Under the pieces are notes generated by a model, which saw nothing but the letters and a program-made list of their open reading frames with translations, made no database searches and was not told where the DNA came from. A stretch of 64,000 nucleotides of DNA from Escherichia phage PP01: the sequence record NC_054930.1. One strand, 5' to 3'. Shown in pieces: positions 2,459-64,000 of this stretch. How positions within the stretch are numbered: the first letter of the stretch is position 1; every line of letters starts with the position of its first letter. Made by a program: the position numbers and the translations under genes.

Positions 2459-4278
2459 TACTGGCTCATCCATTCTTTGCGAAGGTCAGCATTATCTCCC
2501 ATGAGCATTTCAAAAAGCTCTTTCCAGTTCTCAGGAAGTTTAACAACATCATATACTGGATTTTGAATCATCTCACGATATTCAGATTTTTCCAAAGAGC
2601 CAAGTCCCTTAATATAACGGATGCTATGTTTAGGTAGAGCATCTTTGGCACTCTCATATTCAGCGACTGTATAAAACCATTCTTGTTTTTTACCGACTTG
2701 AGCGATGATTACAGGAGTTTTGACAAAGCGAATTCGTCCTTGCTCAAACAGTTCTGGCCAATTACTAAAAAATCCAAGAAGAGAAGGATAAATGCTTCCT
2801 AAACCATCATGGTCAGCATCGGTCATAATAGCAATATTATGATAATTCAAGTTTTCAGCTTTTTCACCAAGAACTAATCCAGTGATTGCGCAAATATCAA
2901 ATAGTTCTTTGTTTTTAAGCATATCAGCATATGACATACCCCAACTGTTGAGAACTTTACCGCGCAATGGATAACCACCGTGAAGTTCTTTATCACGAAC
3001 ATCAATAAGATATCCGATAGCAGAATCACCCTCAGTCAAGAAAAGAGTAGTGTCAGCATCTTTACCGCAAAGATTCGCTTTGATATGTTTATGAACCTTA
3101 GCTTTAGAAGCCTTTTTAGCTGCTTTAGTTTCTGCTGCTTTTTCTGCTGCCAATTTACGGGCCAAGGCAGCTTCAATAATTGGCATCAGAATTGCTTCAT
3201 TATTTAAAATAGCGCGTGAAATCTTTTTAGCATCAAGTTGAATATGACTACGAATTTCGCCAAATGGAGAAGTCAAACGCTCTTTAGTTTGAGAATCAAA
3301 TCGCATGTTTTTCATATCACGGACAAACATAACGATAGTCAAACATTCTTTGACACGTGCTTTAGTTACATCAATTTTGAACTTACGTTTGATTTGTGGA
3401 ATAAGGTCTTCACAAATATCATCCATAACACAGTCAATGTGATGGCCACCATTCTTAGTGTGAATGTTATTCACGTAAGTTAATTGACGAAATCCATCCG
3501 GTGAACGACCAACCGCAATAGAACAATTTTCTTGTTCTTGAACAATAGCATGTTCATCATATTGGCGTGCATATTTCTTAAAATTACCCTGAACCTTTTT
3601 ACCGTTAAAGGTAAATTGAATATCAGGATAAACTACTGCAAGTGTCTGGAGACGATCCAGTGTAATGTCAAGATAAACTTGAGATAGCTCATTAGTTTCA
3701 AATGACATAAAATCAGGAATGAAAGTAACGCGAGTTCCTTTCCATTTTCCAGGAATAGTTTCCCATGATTTATTTTCCATGCCATTTGAACAACGAACCA
3801 CAATATTATTTTGACCGTCGCCAGTTTCACCGACAAACATCACAGAAAAAATGTTAGTTAAACTAGAACCAACACCGTTCATACCGCCAGTGACGCGTTC
3901 TTTATCATCACCAAAGTTGCCGCCTGCTTTTGGAATAGTCCAGGCGGCAACAGGACCAGGAATTTCTTCACCAGTAGGTGTTTTAACCATCGCTTGTGGA
4001 ATACCGCGACCGTTATCTTCAACTGTTACTTGATTGTTTTTAATAGTAACATTAATTTTATTCGCGAATTTAAACTTAGTACGAATACCTTCATCTACTG
4101 AGTTATCGATAATTTCATCAATAAGCTTAACAAGACCAGGTACATACTGAACACTTTCCCATTTACCAAACAGAAAGCGCTCATGCATTTCATTAGCAGA
4201 AGAACCAATGTACATGCCGCTACGCTTTTTGATATGTTCAATATCGCTCAGAATTTTAATTTCATTCTTAATCATCAC
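2458..4278 (-). CDS. 39: DNA topoisomerase II large subunit (GyrB-like ATPase + Toprim), uninterrupted
   Basis: 606-aa continuous ORF; GHKL ATPase motifs (DNGRGIP), Toprim LTEGDSA; corresponds to T4 gp39 plus gp60 as one gene. Confidence 0.9.
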   Translation of the reverse strand: MMIKNEIKILSDIEHIKKRSGMYIGSSANEMHERFLFGKWESVQYVPGLVKLIDEIIDNSVDEGIRTKFKFANKINVTIKNNQVTVEDNGRGIPQAMVKTPTGEEIPGPVAAWTIPKAGGNFGDDKERVTGGMNGVGSSLTNIFSVMFVGETGDGQNNIVVRCSNGMENKSWETIPGKWKGTRVTFIPDFMSFETNELSQVYLDITLDRLQTLAVVYPDIQFTFNGKKVQGNFKKYARQYDEHAIVQEQENCSIAVGRSPDGFRQLTYVNNIHTKNGGHHIDCVMDDICEDLIPQIKRKFKIDVTKARVKECLTIVMFVRDMKNMRFDSQTKERLTSPFGEIRSHIQLDAKKISRAILNNEAILMPIIEAALARKLAAEKAAETKAAKKASKAKVHKHIKANLCGKDADTTLFLTEGDSAIGYLIDVRDKELHGGYPLRGKVLNSWGMSYADMLKNKELFDICAITGLVLGEKAENLNYHNIAIMTDADHDGLGSIYPSLLGFFSNWPELFEQGRIRFVKTPVIIAQVGKKQEWFYTVAEYESAKDALPKHSIRYIKGLGSLEKSEYREMIQNPVYDVVKLPENWKELFEMLMGDNADLRKEWMSQ

Positions 4279-7169: not shown

Positions 7170-7712
7170 TTAATTTAAAATAGCTACCACAGCACTACGA
7201 GGTACTACACTAAAATCACCTGCATGAACAACGTTCAGAAGTTCAACACCATCTTCAACCCACTGGTCTGTTACCCAACCACAGACCGAAATAAATGGGG
7301 TCTTGATAGCTACAGCACGAGTTAGAAGGTCGGTAGGGTCTTGTTCTTCAACTTCTTGGAACAGGATGAACTCTGCTTCATAAACCAGGATTTTCTCCAT
7401 TTTGTTATTGTCTAAACGACGACCGTGGACAATATAAGATTTAGTAAACCATTTACTTTTTTCAAAGTCTTCAACGGTAAATTCGCCTTCGCCAAAAACA
7501 TCAGTCAAAGTTTTATGGCCGGAAATCAAGGCATTAGTTTTAATTTCAGGTTCAACCAGTTTGTAGGTTTTGCCGATTTCAATAGCAGTAGTCATAGTAG
7601 GTTCCTTAATTTCCAGTGGTTTAACAGGGCATACATAAGTGCTTACAACATCAAAATCAATCAGTTTAGCTACCGGATTTGGTGTGTATTCAGGATTATA
7701 ATTAAATTTCAT
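7170..7712 (-). CDS. MotB C-terminal-domain paralogue
   Basis: 180 aa; C-terminal QWVEDGVELLNVVHAGDFSVV matches the family motif. Confidence 0.45.
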   Translation of the reverse strand: MKFNYNPEYTPNPVAKLIDFDVVSTYVCPVKPLEIKEPTMTTAIEIGKTYKLVEPEIKTNALISGHKTLTDVFGEGEFTVEDFEKSKWFTKSYIVHGRRLDNNKMEKILVYEAEFILFQEVEEQDPTDLLTRAVAIKTPFISVCGWVTDQWVEDGVELLNVVHAGDFSVVPRSAVVAILN

Positions 7713-16047: not shown

Positions 16048-16565
16048 TAATAACCTCGGTCTTGACGAGCGAAGTTTTCAGCATTTTTCAGATAATAAAG
16101 TTTAAAGATTTCTTCAGCTGACATTCCAAGAGCAATGAATTTATTCATGAAAAAGTGAAATTGATCAATCAATTCAAATTTAATTTCAAGTTGATCTTCA
16201 GGAGATAAATCTTGAATTTTCTTGGATTGCATTTCAGAATAACGTTTCTTCCAAGGTTTCCATACAGCAGAAGCTTCTTTTTCGCCATTGCTCATACCAC
16301 CAAGAGAAGTATATAGCTCGCGAGTTTCGTCTGCGATATAATCGTCTTGGTTTCGCAGCCAAGCAAGAACTTCTCCCGCAGTTTCAAGCGAATCGGGGTG
16401 ACGATTCGTTTCTGGTTTATCATTAGCCAAACGAATCTGTAAATGCCGCTGCATATCAAGCATAACCTGCAGTGGGTCAATATTGTGCATAATATTCTCA
16501 GCATATGCACGATTTGCTTTATCAACACCTTCGATCAAATGAGCGCATTCATTAAAGTAAGCCAT
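16047..16565 (-). CDS. 56: dCTPase/dUTPase (MazG-like NTP pyrophosphatase)
   Basis: ORF track 16047-16658; internal Met at 16565 gives about 171 aa as in T4 gp56. Confidence 0.75.
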   Translation of the reverse strand: MAYFNECAHLIEGVDKANRAYAENIMHNIDPLQVMLDMQRHLQIRLANDKPETNRHPDSLETAGEVLAWLRNQDDYIADETRELYTSLGGMSNGEKEASAVWKPWKKRYSEMQSKKIQDLSPEDQLEIKFELIDQFHFFMNKFIALGMSAEEIFKLYYLKNAENFARQDRGY

Positions 16566-19850: not shown

Positions 19851-21277
19851 TAAAATTTTAATTCATTTGCCAAAGCATCTAACTGAGCTCGAGCCGATTC
19901 ATTTCTTTGATAGCGATTCTGCTCAGCTTGAATCTGCTGTGAACCTGCCACTTCGTTCACTTCAGTTGGAGTAGAATCTTGTTCAATTTCTACCCATTTC
20001 TGATTTCCTTTTTGAACACCCATCAAAAACTTATTCCATTTATTCTTATCACCATATCGTGATTTGATTTGCTTAATTAGTTGTTGTTCAGCAGCTGCTA
20101 ACTCCTCGGTTTCAATGACCGCAAGCATAAAATCGGCTGTTGCTGGAAGACCGGCAGATTCTGCAATATCGCTCATGTTAACATCAGAAGAATCCCAAGC
20201 TTGTTTACCAACCTGTGCTGCGGTCCAAAGAACAGTTTCGGTTTCAACAGCCAGAGCACGCAATTCTTCTGCGATGGCTTTAACAGTTGTGTAACTATTT
20301 TCTGAGTAAACTCTGATGCGGCAAGATTTACAAATACCTAGATAGTCGACAATAATGATTGTTGGAACAAAATTCTTCTTGAGCTTTAATTCATTTAAAA
20401 GCGACCGAAATGTATTAGCGTCTGCTCCACCAGTAGGATACTGTTTAACGATTAAACGTCCAAGAGTAGATTTCTCACGCCATTTTTCCATTTTTCCTTT
20501 ATATTCAGCGTAAGAAATATGCCCATCATCAATGTCATCAAGAGAAACGTCAAGCATATTAGCATCAATACGTTTAGCACAGACTTCTTCTGCCATTTCC
20601 ATGGAAATGTAAAGAACATTATGTCCGAGCTGCAAATAATCTGCTGCCAATGAACACAGACCTAATGACTTACCAACGTTAACACCAGCCATTAAAACGT
20701 TCAGTGTTCCAGTTTCAGCTCCGCCTTTAGTAATTTTATTTAGAATTTTGAGTTTAAATGGAACCTTACGAGCTTTATTCATATAAGATAGCCAACGTGC
20801 TTCGTAGTCATCCATCCAATCATGACCAACGTAGCTATCAAATGAAATTGATAATGCTTGGCGCATGATGTCAGGAATAGCACCTACATCTGGCATTTTC
20901 TTATTTCGTTTTTCCGGAGGAAGCTCAGCATTAGTTTGAATTTCAATTATTTTAGATGTGGCGTTAAACATCGCCCTTTGCTGAACATATTTTTCTGTTT
21001 CTTTTACTAACCAGCTATGGTCTTCCGGAGAATCGGCCAGTTTTGAAATAAGTGTTTTTACACCAGAATATTCTGTTTCAGTAAATGAACTATTTTCTAA
21101 CGCAACATTTAACGCATTAATAGATGGAACGCTATGATACTCGTTAACATGAGATTTAATTAATTTGAATGTATTTTTAGCTGGACCACTTTCAAAATAT
21201 TCTGAATCCATATATGGCCAAACTTTTGAAAAATAAGCTTGATCAAATATGAGATGAGAAAGAATAATTTCTACCAC
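19850..21277 (-). CDS. 41: replicative DNA helicase (DnaB-like)
   Basis: 475 aa as in T4 gp41; Walker A GVNVGKS. Confidence 0.9.
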   Translation of the reverse strand: MVEIILSHLIFDQAYFSKVWPYMDSEYFESGPAKNTFKLIKSHVNEYHSVPSINALNVALENSSFTETEYSGVKTLISKLADSPEDHSWLVKETEKYVQQRAMFNATSKIIEIQTNAELPPEKRNKKMPDVGAIPDIMRQALSISFDSYVGHDWMDDYEARWLSYMNKARKVPFKLKILNKITKGGAETGTLNVLMAGVNVGKSLGLCSLAADYLQLGHNVLYISMEMAEEVCAKRIDANMLDVSLDDIDDGHISYAEYKGKMEKWREKSTLGRLIVKQYPTGGADANTFRSLLNELKLKKNFVPTIIIVDYLGICKSCRIRVYSENSYTTVKAIAEELRALAVETETVLWTAAQVGKQAWDSSDVNMSDIAESAGLPATADFMLAVIETEELAAAEQQLIKQIKSRYGDKNKWNKFLMGVQKGNQKWVEIEQDSTPTEVNEVAGSQQIQAEQNRYQRNESARAQLDALANELKF

Positions 21278-41528: not shown

Positions 41529-41999
41529 TTAATCATGTTTCCACACCCCATCGGTATTTGACCAAAGTCGCTGATTATCTGATCCTCGCCACAGCTTTTT
41601 GGTCGGAAGATTTTTCTCATACTTCCCATCAATAATAACATCAACATATTTAAGCATTTCTAGTTGTTTAATATCTTCAAACTTATATCCTGTCCACAAC
41701 CAAATGCTTTTATTTGGATAAAGATTTTTTACTGTTTGAACAATGCAATGAACAACATCTCGGTTATCAGGATAGAGAGGGTCTCCTCCAGTTATAGTTA
41801 ATCCTTCTATATAATCATTATTCAAACATTCAATTAATTGTTCCAGCGTTTCACCAGTGAATGGAATGCCATTTCTAGCATTCCATGTTGATTTATTATA
41901 ACACCCTTCACATTTATGCAAACAACCTGTAACGAAAAGAACGACCCTGCAACCAGGGCCATTCACAAAGCAGCACGGGTATATTCTGTCATAATTCAT
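41529..41999 (-). CDS. nrdG: anaerobic ribonucleotide reductase activating protein (radical SAM)
   Basis: CxxxCxxC radical SAM cluster motif (CLHKCEGC); start at Met 41999 (about 156 aa). Confidence 0.85.
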   Translation of the reverse strand: MNYDRIYPCCFVNGPGCRVVLFVTGCLHKCEGCYNKSTWNARNGIPFTGETLEQLIECLNNDYIEGLTITGGDPLYPDNRDVVHCIVQTVKNLYPNKSIWLWTGYKFEDIKQLEMLKYVDVIIDGKYEKNLPTKKLWRGSDNQRLWSNTDGVWKHD

Positions 42000-42826
42000 A
42001 ATAATATCCAATTTTTCCAAGCTTCATCAGTAGAATTACAGCGTTTTAGTATAAGATGTCTAGAAACTTTTATGGCATTTGAGCACTTTTTAATTGAATC
42101 ATATTTAATACCGTCAACTGAAACGGTTTTGCTAGTTGGAGAAATTTTTCCATACATTGGATTTTTTGAACCAACTTGAAGTCCTTTTAAAGCTTTTGAA
42201 AGCTTTTGTCTAGATTCCAATGACATGGGAGAATTCTTTTTACCTTCAATAATTCGCTTGCGATGAAGTTCGCGTTCTTCTTCACTCAAAGAATTGTAAT
42301 ATTTTTTAACACCGTTTGATATAGATAATTTATCTTTCTCAGACCGCTCTCCAGCTAATTTACTTCTAACATCTTTTCGCTTCATAGCTATGCTTACGGC
42401 TTTATTTAAATTTGCTTGATGCTCTGGCGTACGTTTATATTTCTTTAAAGCACGTGAAATAGCTATTTTAGTTTCTTCTGTTCTCTTTTTACCTTTATTT
42501 GCTAAACTATTTTTGCGGCGATGTTCAAGTGTCTGTTCATAGGCAGTTCCACCTTTTCCACCAGGTTTAATATTATATGTATTTTCTTTTAGACAATACT
42601 CTTCGGTTACAAGTTCAGCTTCTTTATCATACATTTGTTTTTCATTATCAAAAACATGTAAAATTTCTTTATTAAAATTTTTTCTACCATATTTTAATAA
42701 AGCGGCACGAATCAATGTTCCTGACCCCATATAACCGTCATTTATGTTATCGGTGCTATGCGCACCGATATATTCCTTTGAATTAATTATATTTGTTATT
42801 TTATAAATTATATAATACCTATGCAT
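41996..42826 (-). CDS. free-standing GIY-YIG homing endonuclease (Seg-like)
   Basis: 276 aa; GIY-YIG motif YIIYKITN...KEYIGAHS; basic C-terminal DNA-binding repeats; inserted between nrdG and nrdD. Confidence 0.7.
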   Translation of the reverse strand: MHRYYIIYKITNIINSKEYIGAHSTDNINDGYMGSGTLIRAALLKYGRKNFNKEILHVFDNEKQMYDKEAELVTEEYCLKENTYNIKPGGKGGTAYEQTLEHRRKNSLANKGKKRTEETKIAISRALKKYKRTPEHQANLNKAVSIAMKRKDVRSKLAGERSEKDKLSISNGVKKYYNSLSEEERELHRKRIIEGKKNSPMSLESRQKLSKALKGLQVGSKNPMYGKISPTSKTVSVDGIKYDSIKKCSNAIKVSRHLILKRCNSTDEAWKNWILL

Positions 42827-44636
42827 GTTTTACTCGTTTTACCATTTCTTTCATTTTACCTAAATTCCATGGAACAACGCTAGGAGTTCCAAGATAACCG
42901 CATGTTCTTCTTATGGTGTTCATCTTTTTAGGATCAGTTTCTCCACAAATAGAACAAACAAATCCGTTTTCAGTAGGAGTCATTTCATGGGTACTTCCAC
43001 ACGTAAAACATTTATCTACCGGCATGTTAACACCAAAATAATCTAAATGTTGTGCAGCATAATCCCATACGGCCTCAAGACCCTTTAAGTTATTTTTCAT
43101 ATCAGGAAGTTCAACATAAGAAATGTGACCGCCTGTCGCAATGAAATGATATGGCGCTTCACGAGAAATCTTTTCAAACGGAGTAATATTTTCTTCTACT
43201 GAAACATGGAAACTGTTAGTGTACCAGCCTTTATCGGTAACATCTTTTACGCTTCCATATTTTTCTGTATCGAGTTTACAGAAGCGATAACAAAGGTTTT
43301 CAGCAGGAGTAGAATACAAGCTAAAAGCAAAACCGGTTCTTTCAGTCCACTGCTTAAGACGAGCATTCATTTTAGTCAAAATTTCCTGTCCAATATCACG
43401 ACCGACAAGAATATTCAATTCGTGAATACCAATGTATCCTAGGGACACTGAACTTCTACCGTTTTTAAATAACTCAATTATGTCGTCATCAGGTTTAAGA
43501 CGAACCCCGAATGCACCTTCTTGGTAAAGAATAGGAGCAACAGTCGCTTTAACTCCTTTTAAGGAACTAATTCTACACATCAAAGCTTCAAAACACAAAT
43601 CCATACGTTCATTGAATAATTCAACAAATTTCTGTTCATTGAACTGTGTTCCAATATAAGAATCTAACGCGATGCGAGGAAGATTCAGTGTTACAACACC
43701 AAGATTATTACGTCCATCAAGAATTTCATTACCAGTCGAATCTTTCCATACGCTCAAGAAACTACGGCAACCCATTGGAGAAACAGGAACAGATGAACCA
43801 GTGATAGCTTTATTGTTCTTAGCTGAAATAATATCAGGATACATCCTTTTGCTTGCACACTCTAGAGCAAGCTGCTTAATATCATAGTTCGGATCGTCTT
43901 TATAAAGATTAACACCTTCTTCAACGAACATAACAAGTTTAGGGAAAATAGGAGTTATCCCATCACGACCAAGACCTTTAATACGATTTTTCAGAATTGC
44001 TTTCTGAATCATTCGTTCAGTCCAGTCAGTTCCCGTACCAAATGTAATTGTTACAAAAGGCGTTTGTCCGTTTGAACTAAAGAGAGTATTTACTTCATAT
44101 TCATAAGCTTGGAACGCATCGTATACGTCTTTTTCTGTTTTAGATTGGGCATAATTCAACGCGTCAGCGATTTGCCATTTTTCTGCATCCTCAATATGTT
44201 TTGCATAGGTGCGTTTAACATAAGGAGAAAGGACTTTATCTACATTCGCAAAAGTCGTTCCACCGTATTGATGGGAAGCAACCTGTGCAGTAATTTGTGC
44301 CATAATTGCAGTAGCAACACCGATTGATTTAGGAGTTTCAATCTGTGCATTACCGAGCTTAAATCCGTTCTCAAGCATTCCTTTTAAATCTACTAAACAG
44401 CAATTAGTAAATGGAAGAGCAGGGGAATAATCAATATCATGGAAATGAATAATTCCGCTTTCATGCGCTTTCATAATAAAAGACGGGACCATATTTTTGG
44501 CAATGTGTTTAGACACAATACCAGCCATAAGGTCCCGTTGAGTTGGAAAAACACGAGAATCTTTATTAGCATTCTCGTTTAAAAGGTCTTTATTAGTTTT
44601 ATGAATCAATCCTTCAATTTCTTTTTCAATTGTCAT
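42819..44636 (-). CDS. nrdD: anaerobic ribonucleoside-triphosphate reductase (glycyl radical enzyme), intron-less
   Basis: 605 aa continuous ORF; C-terminal glycyl radical motif RTCGYLG; Zn ribbon CFTCGS...CSICG. Confidence 0.92.
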   Translation of the reverse strand: MTIEKEIEGLIHKTNKDLLNENANKDSRVFPTQRDLMAGIVSKHIAKNMVPSFIMKAHESGIIHFHDIDYSPALPFTNCCLVDLKGMLENGFKLGNAQIETPKSIGVATAIMAQITAQVASHQYGGTTFANVDKVLSPYVKRTYAKHIEDAEKWQIADALNYAQSKTEKDVYDAFQAYEYEVNTLFSSNGQTPFVTITFGTGTDWTERMIQKAILKNRIKGLGRDGITPIFPKLVMFVEEGVNLYKDDPNYDIKQLALECASKRMYPDIISAKNNKAITGSSVPVSPMGCRSFLSVWKDSTGNEILDGRNNLGVVTLNLPRIALDSYIGTQFNEQKFVELFNERMDLCFEALMCRISSLKGVKATVAPILYQEGAFGVRLKPDDDIIELFKNGRSSVSLGYIGIHELNILVGRDIGQEILTKMNARLKQWTERTGFAFSLYSTPAENLCYRFCKLDTEKYGSVKDVTDKGWYTNSFHVSVEENITPFEKISREAPYHFIATGGHISYVELPDMKNNLKGLEAVWDYAAQHLDYFGVNMPVDKCFTCGSTHEMTPTENGFVCSICGETDPKKMNTIRRTCGYLGTPSVVPWNLGKMKEMVKRVKHA

Positions 44637-45789: not shown

Positions 45790-45894
45790 TTAAGTCATTT
45801 ATCGTTGGTTCATTATATACTGTTTCTTCATCAGTGTAAACCGGTTCTTCCGGCTCTGGCTCTACAGTTTCCCATCTAGCCGCCCACCAGGGTT

Positions 45895-46215
45895 TTATAG
45901 CGTAATCCATTCTCGTATTGTCTGAGTTACTACGCGTTCACGAGGCTCGACTAGTTCAACAGTTGGAACTGCATAATACCAGTCAGAATGGTAAGAACCT
46001 GAGCGAGATTCATTTACGGAAACATGTACATTATGTTTCGGACTAAAATAAACGCACTGCCGATATTGGCATTTGCCATCTTGTACCCAATCTTCTATTT
46101 CGACAGGTTTAAGATAATCCGAAAAATCGAAATCATAATTTTCTGAAAATGCATCATGGTCTTCGATGATTTCACTCAGAACTGCATCAACATCTAATTT
46201 ATTTTCAATAGTCAT
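45895..46215 (-). CDS. hypothetical protein
   Basis: 106-aa ORF. Confidence 0.45.
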   Translation of the reverse strand: MTIENKLDVDAVLSEIIEDHDAFSENYDFDFSDYLKPVEIEDWVQDGKCQYRQCVYFSPKHNVHVSVNESRSGSYHSDWYYAVPTVELVEPRERVVTQTIREWITL

Positions 46216-53906: not shown

Positions 53907-54920
53907 TCATTTATAATAACTTCGGTGGTTTTCAAGATAAACCCTCTCAAGGAAGTCATCCCAGAAACTCATGTCTACTTTTTGCTGCATACCGTTCTTA
54001 GAAGCTTCAATGGATGCTGCTTCTACTTGATCGACCACATCTTCCAAAAACTCTTGAACAGTTTTAAATGGATGCTTACCCAACTTCACGTCGAGAATAA
54101 ATGAAGCATCTTGGAGTGGATAAACCAAGTCACCAGTTTTGTAAATTTCCAATAGTTGGAGTCCACCACGACAAGCATGGCTCAAAGCTTTCCAGTCAAT
54201 GCCCTCATTCGCTTCAGCTTTACGAGCGCGTTCACCGTATTCGGCATCAAGTTTATTCAATGACTGCTTGAGCTCTGTAATTGATAACGTTGTTTGGTAC
54301 TTACGTCCAAGAACAGTATAGAACGTTTGCGGGCCTGTTTTCTCATGATTATGGAACACCCATTCACAGAACTCGTTTTCAGGGAGTCTGTGTTTGATAT
54401 CTTCTACTTTAGTACGACGAAGTCTATCAGGGATTCCTTCTTGATAATCAACCCACTGGTCAGGGATTTGATTAACTACTTTCAATACATCACGTAATGC
54501 GGCCAAACGAGAACCCTTGACACCGTATTTAGAAGCTTGCTTGCGGACATATCCTAAATAGGATTTCATGTTAGTTGTATAAAACCGTGAACGATTGTCT
54601 TGGATAAATTTCCATACATCAGGCAAATCAGATTTAACCACTAGTTCAGGCGGAGTGTGAAGCATATCCAATGCTACAGTTTCACCATCTGCTGCTAATT
54701 TAAAGAAATACTTAAGACTGTATAGTTCATGGTCAATATCATCTTTAGTGTTTTTAGATGATGTGTTGTTAGTGTTTTTACTCATATGCTCTTTAACATT
54801 TCCGATAAGAATATCGCGAGCACGAGGAACAAAGATTTCTTTAAAATCTACATCAGATTCTGGAGTAGAAGTTCCATAAAGATGACTACCAAAATAGCTT
54901 TTCATTACTGTTTTCATCAT
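53907..54920 (-). CDS. nucleotidyltransferase-fold protein (Pol-beta superfamily)
   Basis: 337 aa; N-terminal GS-x9-DVD motif (GSHLYGTSTPESDVDF) typical of minimal NTases. Confidence 0.55.
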   Translation of the reverse strand: MMKTVMKSYFGSHLYGTSTPESDVDFKEIFVPRARDILIGNVKEHMSKNTNNTSSKNTKDDIDHELYSLKYFFKLAADGETVALDMLHTPPELVVKSDLPDVWKFIQDNRSRFYTTNMKSYLGYVRKQASKYGVKGSRLAALRDVLKVVNQIPDQWVDYQEGIPDRLRRTKVEDIKHRLPENEFCEWVFHNHEKTGPQTFYTVLGRKYQTTLSITELKQSLNKLDAEYGERARKAEANEGIDWKALSHACRGGLQLLEIYKTGDLVYPLQDASFILDVKLGKHPFKTVQEFLEDVVDQVEAASIEASKNGMQQKVDMSFWDDFLERVYLENHRSYYK

Positions 54921-61102: not shown

Positions 61103-61564
61103 TCATTGAGTTTTAATTACTGCTTTAGAAGCCTTTCCTGGTAAACGACGACTGTTAATAATTGCCATCCTGCATTGAAGCGACGGGTCTTTGAACTTCG
61201 CATTAGGTTTACAAACTGTAAATCCAAGCCAAAGATTTCCATCTGTGATTTCTAAACGCCCAGGACGATATTCAACCCCATCAATAAAATCCTCGTCAAT
61301 GTCAGGACGCGGAGGCATACTCAGGAATTCATTAACTTCTAAAACATGGTCTTTTATTTTATGGAATAATTCAAAAACATATGTCTCATCAATCTCCCGT
61401 TGAATTGCACGATCAAGAAGATGTTGAGAATATTTTAGATGAAACGATGAGACCCCTGCTGCTTTTGATGCCTCACGAATCTCATTGTTAATTTGACGAA
61501 ACTCCGACTCAAAGTGACGACGGAGCTTATTTCGACGGATAAAAACTTCTATGTTGATAGTCAT
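61103..61564 (-). CDS. regB: RegB endoribonuclease
   Basis: 153 aa as in T4 RegB; basic; early promoter at 61592-61621. Confidence 0.65.
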   Translation of the reverse strand: MTINIEVFIRRNKLRRHFESEFRQINNEIREASKAAGVSSFHLKYSQHLLDRAIQREIDETYVFELFHKIKDHVLEVNEFLSMPPRPDIDEDFIDGVEYRPGRLEITDGNLWLGFTVCKPNAKFKDPSLQCRMAIINSRRLPGKASKAVIKTQ

Positions 61565-61591
61565 GTTATTCTCCTCTTAACTGATAGAAAA

Positions 61592-61621
61592 ATTATACCA
61601 CAGTCAAGAGGAAAAGTAAAC
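61592..61621 (-). promoter_or_regulatory. early promoter upstream of regB
   Basis: GTTTAC, 18 bp, TATAAT with TGG. Confidence 0.6.
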
Positions 61622-61623
61622 AG

Positions 61624-61944
61624 TTATTCTTTAAATCTAATCAATTTATTCATAGACTTTGAAACTTCTGCACGAACCTCATGTAGGTTTTTAAGCTGTT
61701 CAAGACGCTGCTCATAGTAAGCAATTTCATCTTCTTCGAGACAGTCCTGCGAATCTTCTTTAAGATAACGTGCATAGTCCTGGAAAGCTTTACGGACTAC
61801 TTCCTGGAAGTCATCAAGACTTTGAATTTTCTTAGGAGCAACAGATACACGACGAGGGGCAGTATAATATTCATAACCAAACCCTGCGCTTAATTGAGCC
61901 ATTAATATTTTTCCTCTGGTTGGAACACAGCACGACAAGCCCAC
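61624..61944 (-). CDS. hypothetical protein (vs.3 position)
   Basis: 106-aa ORF (likely start at internal Met). Confidence 0.4.
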
Positions 61945-62168
61945 ATACTGGCTTCTTTGAGTTTCGTTTTAGCAATAGTTAACTGATCGAGGCTTTCAGC
62001 ATAATTCTTTGCGAATTCACAGTCTTCACAATTATCTAGTGCTTCCCAGAATTCATCATACAAAGCATCAAAGATAAGTCCTAAACGAACTTCAGCATCT
62101 TTGATAGCATTCACTTTACCGATTTTCTCTTCAGTGTGCGGCTTATAACCTTTAATGTCTTCAATCAT
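61902..62168 (-). CDS. small helical protein (vs.4 position; candidate Acb2-like nucleotide sponge)
   Basis: 88-aa ORF; position counted from regB; identity inferred only from size and synteny. Confidence 0.4.
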
Positions 62169-62382
62169 ATTTTACTTCCTCGCCAGTACATAAATCATAT
62201 TCAACTAAACGAATAGGTTCATGAATGCCATATCCCTGAACAGAAATTTCTGTCGTAGGATAAATTCCACTAATATCACCCATGTTCCATGCTTCATTAA
62301 ATTGCTGTTCGCCTGAATTACTAAACCACTCGGCGAAAGCATTTAGCACATCTTTAGAACCTTCAATAATTATCTTTGCCAT
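62161..62382 (-). CDS. small hypothetical protein
   Basis: 73-aa ORF. Confidence 0.4.
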   Translation of the reverse strand: MAKIIIEGSKDVLNAFAEWFSNSGEQQFNEAWNMGDISGIYPTTEISVQGYGIHEPIRLVEYDLCTGEEVKYD

Positions 62383-62756
62383 TACAAGCTCTCAGTAAAG
62401 GTACGAGCGATAACGTCGCGCTGCTGTTCCGGAGTCAGAGAGTTAAAGCGAACTGCATAACCTGATACACGGATGGTCAGCTGCGGATATTTTTCCGGAT
62501 GCTTAACTGCATCTTCCAGAGTTTCACGACGCAGAACGTTAACATTCAGGTGTTGACCACCTTCAATTTTAACCGTAGGCTGTGGTTCAATTTCAATTTC
62601 ACGGGCATGCAAACCGTAGAAAATTTCCGGGTCTACAAAAGAGTCCTCTTTAAAGGTTTTAGAGACAATAATTCGTGCTTGAATACCATCTTCAAAATAA
62701 ATAGTACCTTTATGCGTGCCTTCAAGAATTTGATATGCTTTCATATAACCTCTCAA
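62382..62756 (-). CDS. autonomous glycyl radical cofactor (GrcA/YfiD-like)
   Basis: 124 aa; C-terminal 70 aa match the E. coli GrcA/PflB glycyl radical domain as recalled (RVSGYAVRF); locally GC-rich host-like codons. Confidence 0.8.
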
Positions 62757-63133
62757 TTAGAAAATAAATTTATCCAAGATTGCTCTTTAATTAAAAATGG
62801 CTCAGAATCATATGCCATTAAACTTTGGGTAATTAGTCCTTTAAAAGGCCCATCAATAAATTCCATGGTAAAATATGGAATTTTATTCATTAATCTTGCA
62901 TTAGGAGCCGTGCACAAAACTCTGCATCCTTTGAATACACCTTTTTGTAATTTGTATTGCTTAGGATAAAATTCGCTCAAGACGTTGTTATTTGCCAAAA
63001 TTTCAAAATGATTCACCAATTTATTTTTAATAGTTTTTGGCGAAAAATAAAGATATTCGAAAAGTTGCGTATCTGTCATCATTGCATTCCAATTACGAAA
63101 AACTGCGGACGAGTAATACCACCAATGCAACAT
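62753..63133 (-). CDS. hypothetical protein
   Basis: 126-aa ORF. Confidence 0.4.
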
Positions 63134-63618
63134 TTACTATTGCAACAGTAATGCACAGTTTCAATATGAATATCGTAAATTTTATCCATATCAGGAGCTT
63201 TAACAGGCTCATCAATTATATACAAAATTCGTGAAAGCGATAAACCTCTGAACTTACTTCCTTTATTGCCAATAAAACTACGCACAGAATCAGTAAATAA
63301 ACGAAAACGTATATCATCATTAGAATAACGCGAAAATTCCTTTTTAATGTTATTTGCAGAAATTTTAGCGTAAGCTGAAGTGTTAGAAAGAACAATAACT
63401 GTTCCACCATCATACAGCCAATTAGCAGCAAAGTTAGTCACAGCAGTTGATTTACCAGATTGACGTCCACCATCTAGTCGAAGTGTGCAATACTGTTTGA
63501 GTAAGTCTTCAAATGGTGGGATATAATCGTTTTTACAAATTTCTTCTACTCTAGCATCAGAATGGTGTGTAAAAGCATTCATCAGGGATAGATAAGGACC
63601 AGTTAAAAATGTTCTCAT
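63079..63618 (-). CDS. small P-loop NTPase
   Basis: 179 aa; Walker A GRQSGKST, Walker B LYIIDEP. Confidence 0.5.
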   Translation of the reverse strand: MRTFLTGPYLSLMNAFTHHSDARVEEICKNDYIPPFEDLLKQYCTLRLDGGRQSGKSTAVTNFAANWLYDGGTVIVLSNTSAYAKISANNIKKEFSRYSNDDIRFRLFTDSVRSFIGNKGSKFRGLSLSRILYIIDEPVKAPDMDKIYDIHIETVHYCCNSKCCIGGITRPQFFVIGMQ

Positions 63619-63770
63619 TTCTTCTCTCTAAATTTGGGCCATTCCGTGGCGCATGAATTGTCCATTTCTGTATTTACCCATTACCGCACTTGGGCTCGAC
63701 CTTATTACAGGTTGGCGGGAATCCCTCACAGAACCATGAGGTCCAGCTTGTTCCCATATTTCTTATTTGC

Positions 63771-64000
63771 TTATTTGAACGATTTAACGTACTGAATAGA
63801 ACCTTTACTATTCACAAAGGCAATTTTACCATTTTTGTTATACATGGTAGCAGTACGTTGATAGCCATAAGTTTGTTTACCAGATTGATAACCAACTAAT
63901 GCAAAATTATCTTCACCCATTTTATTCTGTTTAGCGCGAATGCGTTCATGACCATGTGCCATAAGAACCTTAGCATCACCAGTTGCAATGGATCGACGAG
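63771..64000 (-). CDS. hypothetical protein, 5'-truncated by window end
   Basis: Reading frame is open to the window edge; C-terminal 63 aa seen. Confidence 0.4.
   Translation of the reverse strand, partial: RRSIATGDAKVLMAHGHERIRAKQNKMGEDNFALVGYQSGKQTYGYQRTATMYNKNGKIAFVNSKGSIQYVKSFK

Follow-up and report, generated by a model that had tools for sequence, protein, structure and literature searches.

The vs.6 gene of Escherichia phage PP01 appears to be a mosaic of a phage-type 5′ half and a 3′ half copied from host grcA

The vs.6 Locus and Its Product

The stretch of DNA that was analysed, hereafter the window, comprises 64,000 nt of Escherichia phage PP01 (NC_054930.1). It belongs to Tequatrovirus; the best nucleotide match is 97.2% identical over 1.5 kb. 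An open reading frame on the minus strand (62382-62756) has its probable start codon, ATG, at 62744 and from there specifies a protein of 120 amino acids, which is the length of the CDS annotated in close phage relatives, where the annotated start agrees with the one chosen here. This is gene vs.6, whose features and immediate neighbours are collected in Table 1. Its product is a stand-alone protein of ~14 kDa, bounded by vs.7 and vs.5 and devoid of the catalytic barrel of glycyl-radical enzymes. The gene order in the window, vs.7 - vs.6 - vs.5 - acb2 (vs.4) - vs.3 - regB - vs.1 - vs, is the same as in phage T4.

Table 1. Features at the vs.6 locus, with their positions in the window
Feature	Position	Strand	Evidence
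vs.6 (Y06I) CDS, autonomous glycyl radical cofactor by sequence; 120 aa plus TAA stop (62382-62384)	62382..62744	-	ORF, Pfam, BLASTP, annotation of relatives, identity with T4
Shine-Dalgarno-like GAGAGG, 4 nt upstream of the vs.6 ATG; overlaps the vs.7 TGA stop (62753-62755)	62749..62754	-	read from the sequence
Gly95 GGT codon in RVSGYAV, predicted radical site, equivalent to YfiD Gly102	62460..62462	-	sequence, Pfam Gly_radical, alignment with 6OWR
Phage-type 5′ half: gene nt 1-178, residues 1-59; GC 0.36, GC3 0.25, ~45% identity to E. coli grcA	62567..62744	-	
Apparent conversion tract from the host: residues 60-118 (gene nt 179-353), with a single mismatch over 175 nt to the 503025/APEC-type E. 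coli grcA allele; encodes the structured glycyl-radical domain	62392..62566	-	
Phage-specific variable 3′ end: gene nt 354-363, GAG AGC TTG TAA; the TAA overlaps the vs.5 ATG (TAATG)	62382..62391	-	
vs.5, 73 aa, function unknown; start overlaps the vs.6 stop	62161..62382	-	context
vs.7, upstream gene, function unknown	62753..63133	-	context

The protein matches Pfam Gly_radical (2.8e-18) and, by BLASTP, E. coli GrcA (9e-52), the last 60 residues being 100% identical. In the PDB, it finds YfiD (6OWR; 8.6e-42) and residues 697-759 of pyruvate formate-lyase (PFL; 5e-26). With the vs.6 translation of T4 (KJ477684), it shares 100% amino acid identity over all 120 residues. The original prediction, made from the letters of the DNA, of a GrcA/YfiD homologue with a counterpart (Y06I) in T4 was thus correct on both counts. 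Phage residues 61-120 correspond to GrcA 68-127, and the RVSGYAV loop is common to both proteins, whereas the N-terminal half of the phage protein is seven residues shorter and, at the DNA level, AT-rich. The score against NCBIfam TIGR04365 (spare_glycyl) stays below the equivalog cut-off (153.3 bits vs 170) because the N-terminus is divergent and shorter, so that only residues 20-120 align; TIGR04365 is still the best-scoring family for the vs.6 protein, and E. coli GrcA scores 234 there. In PHROGs, vs.6 is assigned to phrog_1209, labelled as function unknown.

By its structural definition, read here from the amino acid sequence, the vs.6 product is an autonomous glycyl radical cofactor, equal to the validated T4 member. 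The gene, which is conserved across T4-like genomes (PMC1524935), and its biochemical function are already known, since the protein is identical to T4 Y06I, the biochemistry of which was published earlier: according to the summary in PMC8683613 of the work of Wagner et al. 2001 (BBRC 285:456), both T4 Y06I and YfiD accept a glycyl radical from the activase PflA and restore PFL that had been cleaved by O2.

A promoter and terminator scan of 61500-64000 yielded counts no higher than those of shuffled controls, and an Rfam scan of the whole window returned no family at the gathering score. Two genes downstream of vs.6, at 61902-62168 (minus strand), vs.4 encodes Acb2, an anti-CBASS cyclic-oligonucleotide sponge (Pfam Acb2_Tad1_hairpin, 7e-20).

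A GC-Rich Segment of vs.6 Is Nearly Identical to E. coli grcA

The GC content of the 185 nt at 62382-62566 is 0.476, against a window mean of 0.344, and lies at the 99.9th percentile of all 185-nt windows. The GC at third codon positions (GC3) is 0.41 in the tract, against 0.25 in the 5′ half of vs.6 and 0.24 in the ORFs of the window; no 61-codon window of the minus-strand ORFs of at least 120 aa matches that value, which is attained only by spurious antisense ORFs. A GC-rich island with E. coli-like codons had been predicted at about 62400-62650, coinciding with a GrcA-like segment of roughly 70 residues. The island is real and the amino acid sequence that had been quoted does match, but the actual limits are 62382-62566 and the matching segment is 59-60 residues long.

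The codons are not merely E. coli-like: in each of the 5,426 complete E. coli genomes, grcA matches the 185-nt segment with 98.4% DNA identity, and every difference from the E. coli sequence is synonymous. The core of the segment, gene nt 179-353 (62392-62566), differs from one extant E. coli allele by a single base, the private 201T. The GC and codon island is therefore accounted for by the segment being E. coli-derived DNA. When the whole 64-kb window was compared by megablast with the same 5,426 genomes, no match was obtained besides the grcA tract, so the suspected signature of capture from the host, now seen as 98-99% DNA identity to grcA, is the sole segment of its kind in the window. 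If our interpretation holds, the grcA tract constitutes the only detectable DNA homology between phage and host in these 64 kb. The genes pflB and tdcE were considered as donors of the tract and rejected because their DNA identity is only ~79%.

Six other GC maxima (0.46-0.49 in 185-nt windows) occur at 20070-20297, 45802-46035, 3809-4037, 16224-16488, 54149-54347 and 7181-7376; none of them had a megablast match in the 5,426 E. coli genomes. On the opposite strand, an ORF of 156 aa (62499-62969, plus strand) runs antisense to vs.6 and vs.7 with a GC3 of 0.64. It is probably spurious as a gene; its high GC3 is explained by the tract that lies opposite.

Breakpoint and Direction of Transfer

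The transition between the two parts of vs.6 is sharp. At gene nt 179 (window position 62566), identity to E. coli grcA changes from 45.7% on the left to 98.4% on the right, where it extends as far as the stop codon, and the maximum chi-square of 120 at this breakpoint was reached by none of 2000 permutations. In the tract, 57 of 60 codons are identical to those of E. coli grcA; in the 5′ half, this is so for only six of the 16 codons that specify the same amino acid. The N-terminal half retains protein-level homology to GrcA (ARxIVxK...EDxxV) but is diverged, and this phage-type half is common to other T4-like phages.

The two parts also differ in their affinities when the window vs.6 is aligned with E. 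coli grcA, vs.6 of a Klebsiella T4-like phage and K. pneumoniae grcA. In the 5′ half of this four-taxon alignment, 58 informative sites pair phage with phage and host with host, against three and two sites for the alternative pairings; in the tract, 18 sites pair each phage with its own host and none pairs the two phages. The bacterial genes display no such discontinuity. Identity between E. coli and K. pneumoniae grcA is nearly even along the gene (84% in the 5′ half, 87% in the tract), bacterial GC3 is uniform (0.39 in the 5′ half, 0.41 in the 3′ half), and grcA resides in a conserved synteny, ung-grcA-eamB. Since only the phage gene is mosaic, while its bacterial counterpart is evenly divergent, uniform in composition and stable in its surroundings, the direction of transfer is from host to phage.

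On the strength of these alignments, vs.6 is a mosaic, in which codons 1-59 belong to an old, AT-rich phage lineage and codons 60-118 are a copy of the chromosomal grcA of the host. As the same comparisons indicate, it arose by gene conversion of the 3′ half and not by capture of the whole gene; the horizontal acquisition that had been proposed is upheld as to its host origin but reduced to that half. In the literature that could be searched, to which the T4 genome review (PMC150520) did not belong, we found no earlier description of the vs.6 mosaic. Unlike the gene and its function, this mosaic at the DNA level is the added result.

The Tract Follows the Host Genus

With E. coli grcA as the query, 631 phage records were retrieved at 95-99% identity, always over query positions 200-384 only; they comprise T4-like phages of Escherichia, Shigella, Yersinia and Salmonella from the genera Tequatrovirus and Mosigvirus. 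With K. pneumoniae grcA (taken from entries of the plasmid collection PLSDB), we found Klebsiella-phage records instead, 106 at 95-99% and 28 at 90-95%, over query positions 202-369/374; the coliphages match the K. pneumoniae gene at only 86-88%. The 5′ half of vs.6 in the Klebsiella T4-like phages is related to the coliphage version, and the 5′ junction is the same in both groups. Moreover, residues 77 and 81 are E and K in E. coli but L and E in Klebsiella, and at both positions the phage agrees with its own host. No phage exceeded 90% identity to a Salmonella grcA query; host matching is hence not universal, a Salmonella-type tract being found in no phage.

Some of the PLSDB entries, namely CP125156.1, NZ_CP093490.1 and several E. 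coli “plasmids” of 4.8-4.9 Mb, are chromosomal or chromosome-sized sequences filed as plasmids.

The vs.6 homologues of the CC31/PG7, RB16/RB43, KP15 and T5-like groups have the same architecture and the conserved C-terminal domain, but they carry no recent host tract: in their 3′ halves, identity to the bacterial grcA genes that were sampled is no more than 70-83%. In the RB16/RB43-type phages (L094-L098; gene at 1501-1863), the C-terminal 60 residues are identical or nearly so to those of E. coli GrcA, while the DNA is only 82% identical. The KP15-type Klebsiella phages (L099/L100) likewise have the Klebsiella-type residues L77 and E81 without DNA identity. Both groups are examples of a protein-level match to the host without recent transfer.

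These homologues bear on whether the DNA identity of the tract could have come about by convergence, i.e., through selection on protein sequence and codon usage without any transfer. The extreme conservation of the C-terminal domain among phage and bacterial homologues would make such convergence conceivable at the protein level. At the DNA level, the RB16/RB43-type phages demonstrate that the same 60 amino acids can be specified at 82% nucleotide identity, whereas in the tract almost all codons are those of the host (57/60), Klebsiella phages agree with K. pneumoniae at 18 of 18 discriminating sites, and individual phages carry rare host polymorphisms (see below). The 82% figure, the shared rare alleles and the 18 concordant sites effectively refute codon convergence as an explanation for the match in DNA, and we accord it a vanishingly small probability.

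Among the sequences collected, the vs.6-like genes of two records (L117 and L119; 1480-1827) contain an in-frame stop codon, and a Klebsiella-type T4-like contig (L108; gene at about 1501-1862) has a frameshifted copy of vs.6; these may be pseudogenes or sequencing errors. A 19-kb IMG/VR contig (L111; gene at 1414-1797) harbours a full-length grcA of the bacterial type, with the N-terminus MITGIQITK... and a 3′ part 91% identical to Yersinia grcA, which would represent either a “viral” contig that contains bacterial DNA or the capture of a whole gene.

Probable Recency and Recurrence of Copying

Between the window and Mosigvirus, vs.7, vs.5 and vs.4 are 60-70% identical and the 5′ half of vs.6 is 88-89% identical, while the tract reaches 98%. 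Synonymous codon differences between Tequatrovirus and Mosigvirus amount on average to 21% for the 5′ half and to 5% for the tract; Fisher tests of the tract against the 5′ half, performed per pair, are modest in outcome (p = 0.008-0.05), with ~58 synonymous sites only.

Individual phages can be assigned to individual host alleles, in a small sample of 13 phages and 6 E. coli alleles. The 175-nt core of T4 and of two further phages (L085 and L088) has no mismatch to the NRG857C-type allele, and that of Shigella phage sb2 has none to the 503025-type allele; the tract of another (L083) is nearest to the K-12 type. The vs.6 genes of PP01 and T4, which specify the same protein, differ at a few synonymous sites, one of them being nt 282, A in the window (503025 type) and C in T4 (NRG857C type). 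The tract of phage Ozark has the haplotype of E. coli 2013C-4282 (192G, 204A, 282C and 330T), and the same variants are also present in a separate Escherichia lineage (L003). The probability that the three rarer of the Ozark sites coincide by chance is ~3e-4. No exact match to the Ozark/2013C haplotype was found in IMG/VR; it is thus rare and known from a single genome. Allele sharing of this single-genome kind could in part be mimicked by reads from the propagation host that enter the phage assembly. The last ten bases of vs.6 (nt 354-363) are phage-specific and differ among phages, which suggests, at the level of sequence, that the 3′ junctions differ between copying events.

A simpler history would involve one capture of the grcA 3′ half in each lineage (coliphages and Klebsiella phages), followed by vertical inheritance under purifying and codon-usage selection without continuing exchange with the host. 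This would agree with the same 5′ limit in all coliphage tracts and with the phage-specific G at nt 354, which they share with the exception of T4. Low divergence is also in part to be expected in a highly expressed, slowly evolving gene like grcA, the significance of the comparisons between tract and 5′ half is no more than moderate, and the tract common to Tequatrovirus and Mosigvirus could stem from exchange between phages instead of from separate captures. Against it stand the match of distinct phages to distinct extant E. coli alleles, with zero to one mismatch, and the four linked variants that Ozark shares with one of these alleles. The 98% identity of the tract between two genera that share 60-70% in their flanking genes, and the variable state of sites 354-360 among phages, likewise speak against it. 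We therefore regard a single capture per lineage as rather unlikely.

Phage-to-host transfer, or an artefact of assembly or contamination, was weighed as well. Phage lysates contain host DNA, and host grcA reads could be recruited to the vs.6 locus during assembly. On the other hand, more than 600 phage genomes that were sequenced independently, that of T4 among them, contain the tract, and Ozark-type variants recur in lineage L003; furthermore, the conserved synteny, the uniform composition and the even E. coli/K. pneumoniae divergence of bacterial grcA are at odds with a phage origin. We consider both possibilities extremely improbable.

From the allele comparisons, capture of the tract appears to be recent and probably occurred more than once, each time matched to the host. 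In a wider sense, it is likely that T-even phages are in continuing homologous exchange with host chromosomes at this 175-nt segment of vs.6, which would be re-copied repeatedly from the grcA allele of the strain or genus that they infect. If so, the tract records the recent host history of the phage and keeps the spare part matched to PflA and PflB of its host.

The copying itself could take place during infection, when fragments of host DNA would undergo homologous recombination with vs.6 or be used as its template through template switching. The 5′ end of the tract would be set where the similarity between phage and host stops, at the block coding for GGQHLNV; the 3′ end would fall just before the vs.6 stop codon, which overlaps the start of vs.5. 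The reach of conversion is probably limited on this 3′ side, because a longer conversion would destroy the vs.5 start (TAATG). Once a segment has been converted, its near-perfect homology to the host gene should make further conversion easier.

Parallel with Cyanophage Photosystem Genes

The cyanophage genes psbA and psbD are reportedly auxiliary metabolic genes that have undergone intragenic recombination between host and phage. They resemble vs.6 in that infection damages a host metabolic protein of which the phage has its own copy, in the mosaic with host segments and in the host-specific clustering. vs.6 differs in the protein and its chemistry and in the extent of the exchange, here a segment of ~175 nt with as much as 100% identity to extant host alleles. 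A further difference lies in its carrier, a virulent T-even phage, which degrades the DNA of its host and modifies its own cytosines. Our results would mean that homology still allows a T-even phage to gain short stretches of host sequence, and to gain them repeatedly, despite the destruction of host DNA and its modified cytosines. The host-allele SNPs in vs.6 could then serve as a natural marker for phage-host recombination and for the recent hosts of environmental T4-like phages. As an enterobacterial parallel to cyanophage psbA, the system should be of moderate interest to specialists in phage evolution.

The Client of the vs.6 Protein

In YfiD, residues 61-127 form the structured domain, with the fold of PFL 693-759, which carries the radical and inserts into damaged PFL, while residues 1-60 are disordered and matter for binding to cleaved PFL (cPFL) and for activation but not for catalysis (PMC8683613). 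The tract in vs.6 corresponds to the structured domain and the phage-type half to the disordered residues 1-60. The C-terminal domain of PflB (697-759), with which the vs.6 protein shares fold and motif, is the portion of PFL for which the spare part substitutes; between a PflB C-terminal sequence (L151) and phage residues 60-120, 12 of 61 positions differ by hand count. The host-identical part of vs.6 is thus the structured domain, which must fit host PflA and damaged PflB, and this argues for PFL as the client.

Going by what has been published for YfiD and for T4 Y06I, whose sequence is the same, PflA, the activase of the host, would install the radical on Gly95, and the C-terminal domain would then insert into host PFL cleaved by O2 at Gly734 and restore its activity. 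Once host gene expression has been shut off by the phage, the host would no longer make grcA mRNA, and the benefit may be that PFL-dependent fermentative energy and acetyl-CoA continue to be provided in micro-oxic, gut-like conditions. The account as a whole, in which vs.6 encodes a glycyl radical cofactor, is a mosaic with a host-copied tract, has been copied repeatedly and keeps its domain identical to that of the current host, seems to us highly probable.

Of the two clients envisaged in the original prediction, host PflB had already been established for T4 Y06I by in vitro work (Wagner et al. 2001, summarised in PMC8683613), and the match to PflB 697-759 accords with it. The other was a glycyl-radical enzyme of the phage itself: the vs.6 protein would be a spare part for phage NrdD, activated by phage NrdG. 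Both proteins are indeed encoded in the window, as had been noted (NrdD, 42819-44636; NrdG, 41529-42020). Like PFL, NrdD is cleaved by O2 at its glycyl radical. That other glycyl-radical enzymes may have spare parts has been put forward as a speculation (PMC8683613). However, sequence support for NrdD as the client was not obtained: the BLASTP alignment of the vs.6 protein with NrdD of the window is not significant (E = 2.4) and lies off the radical loop, and no NrdD chain is among the PDB matches of the vs.6 protein at E <= 1e-3, where PFL is found at 5e-26. Moreover, the domain remains the same as in the PFL-specific GrcA of the host, and the variable residues 77 and 81 track the host species, not the phage. 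The identity of the radical domain with that of the host points to host PflA and PflB as partners and not to phage NrdD, which we judge very unlikely to be the client.

Between nrdD and nrdG, and overlapping both at its ends, the minus strand contains an ORF of 276 aa (41996-42826) with a NUMOD3 motif and an I-TevI-type DNA-binding domain, which is homing-endonuclease-like.
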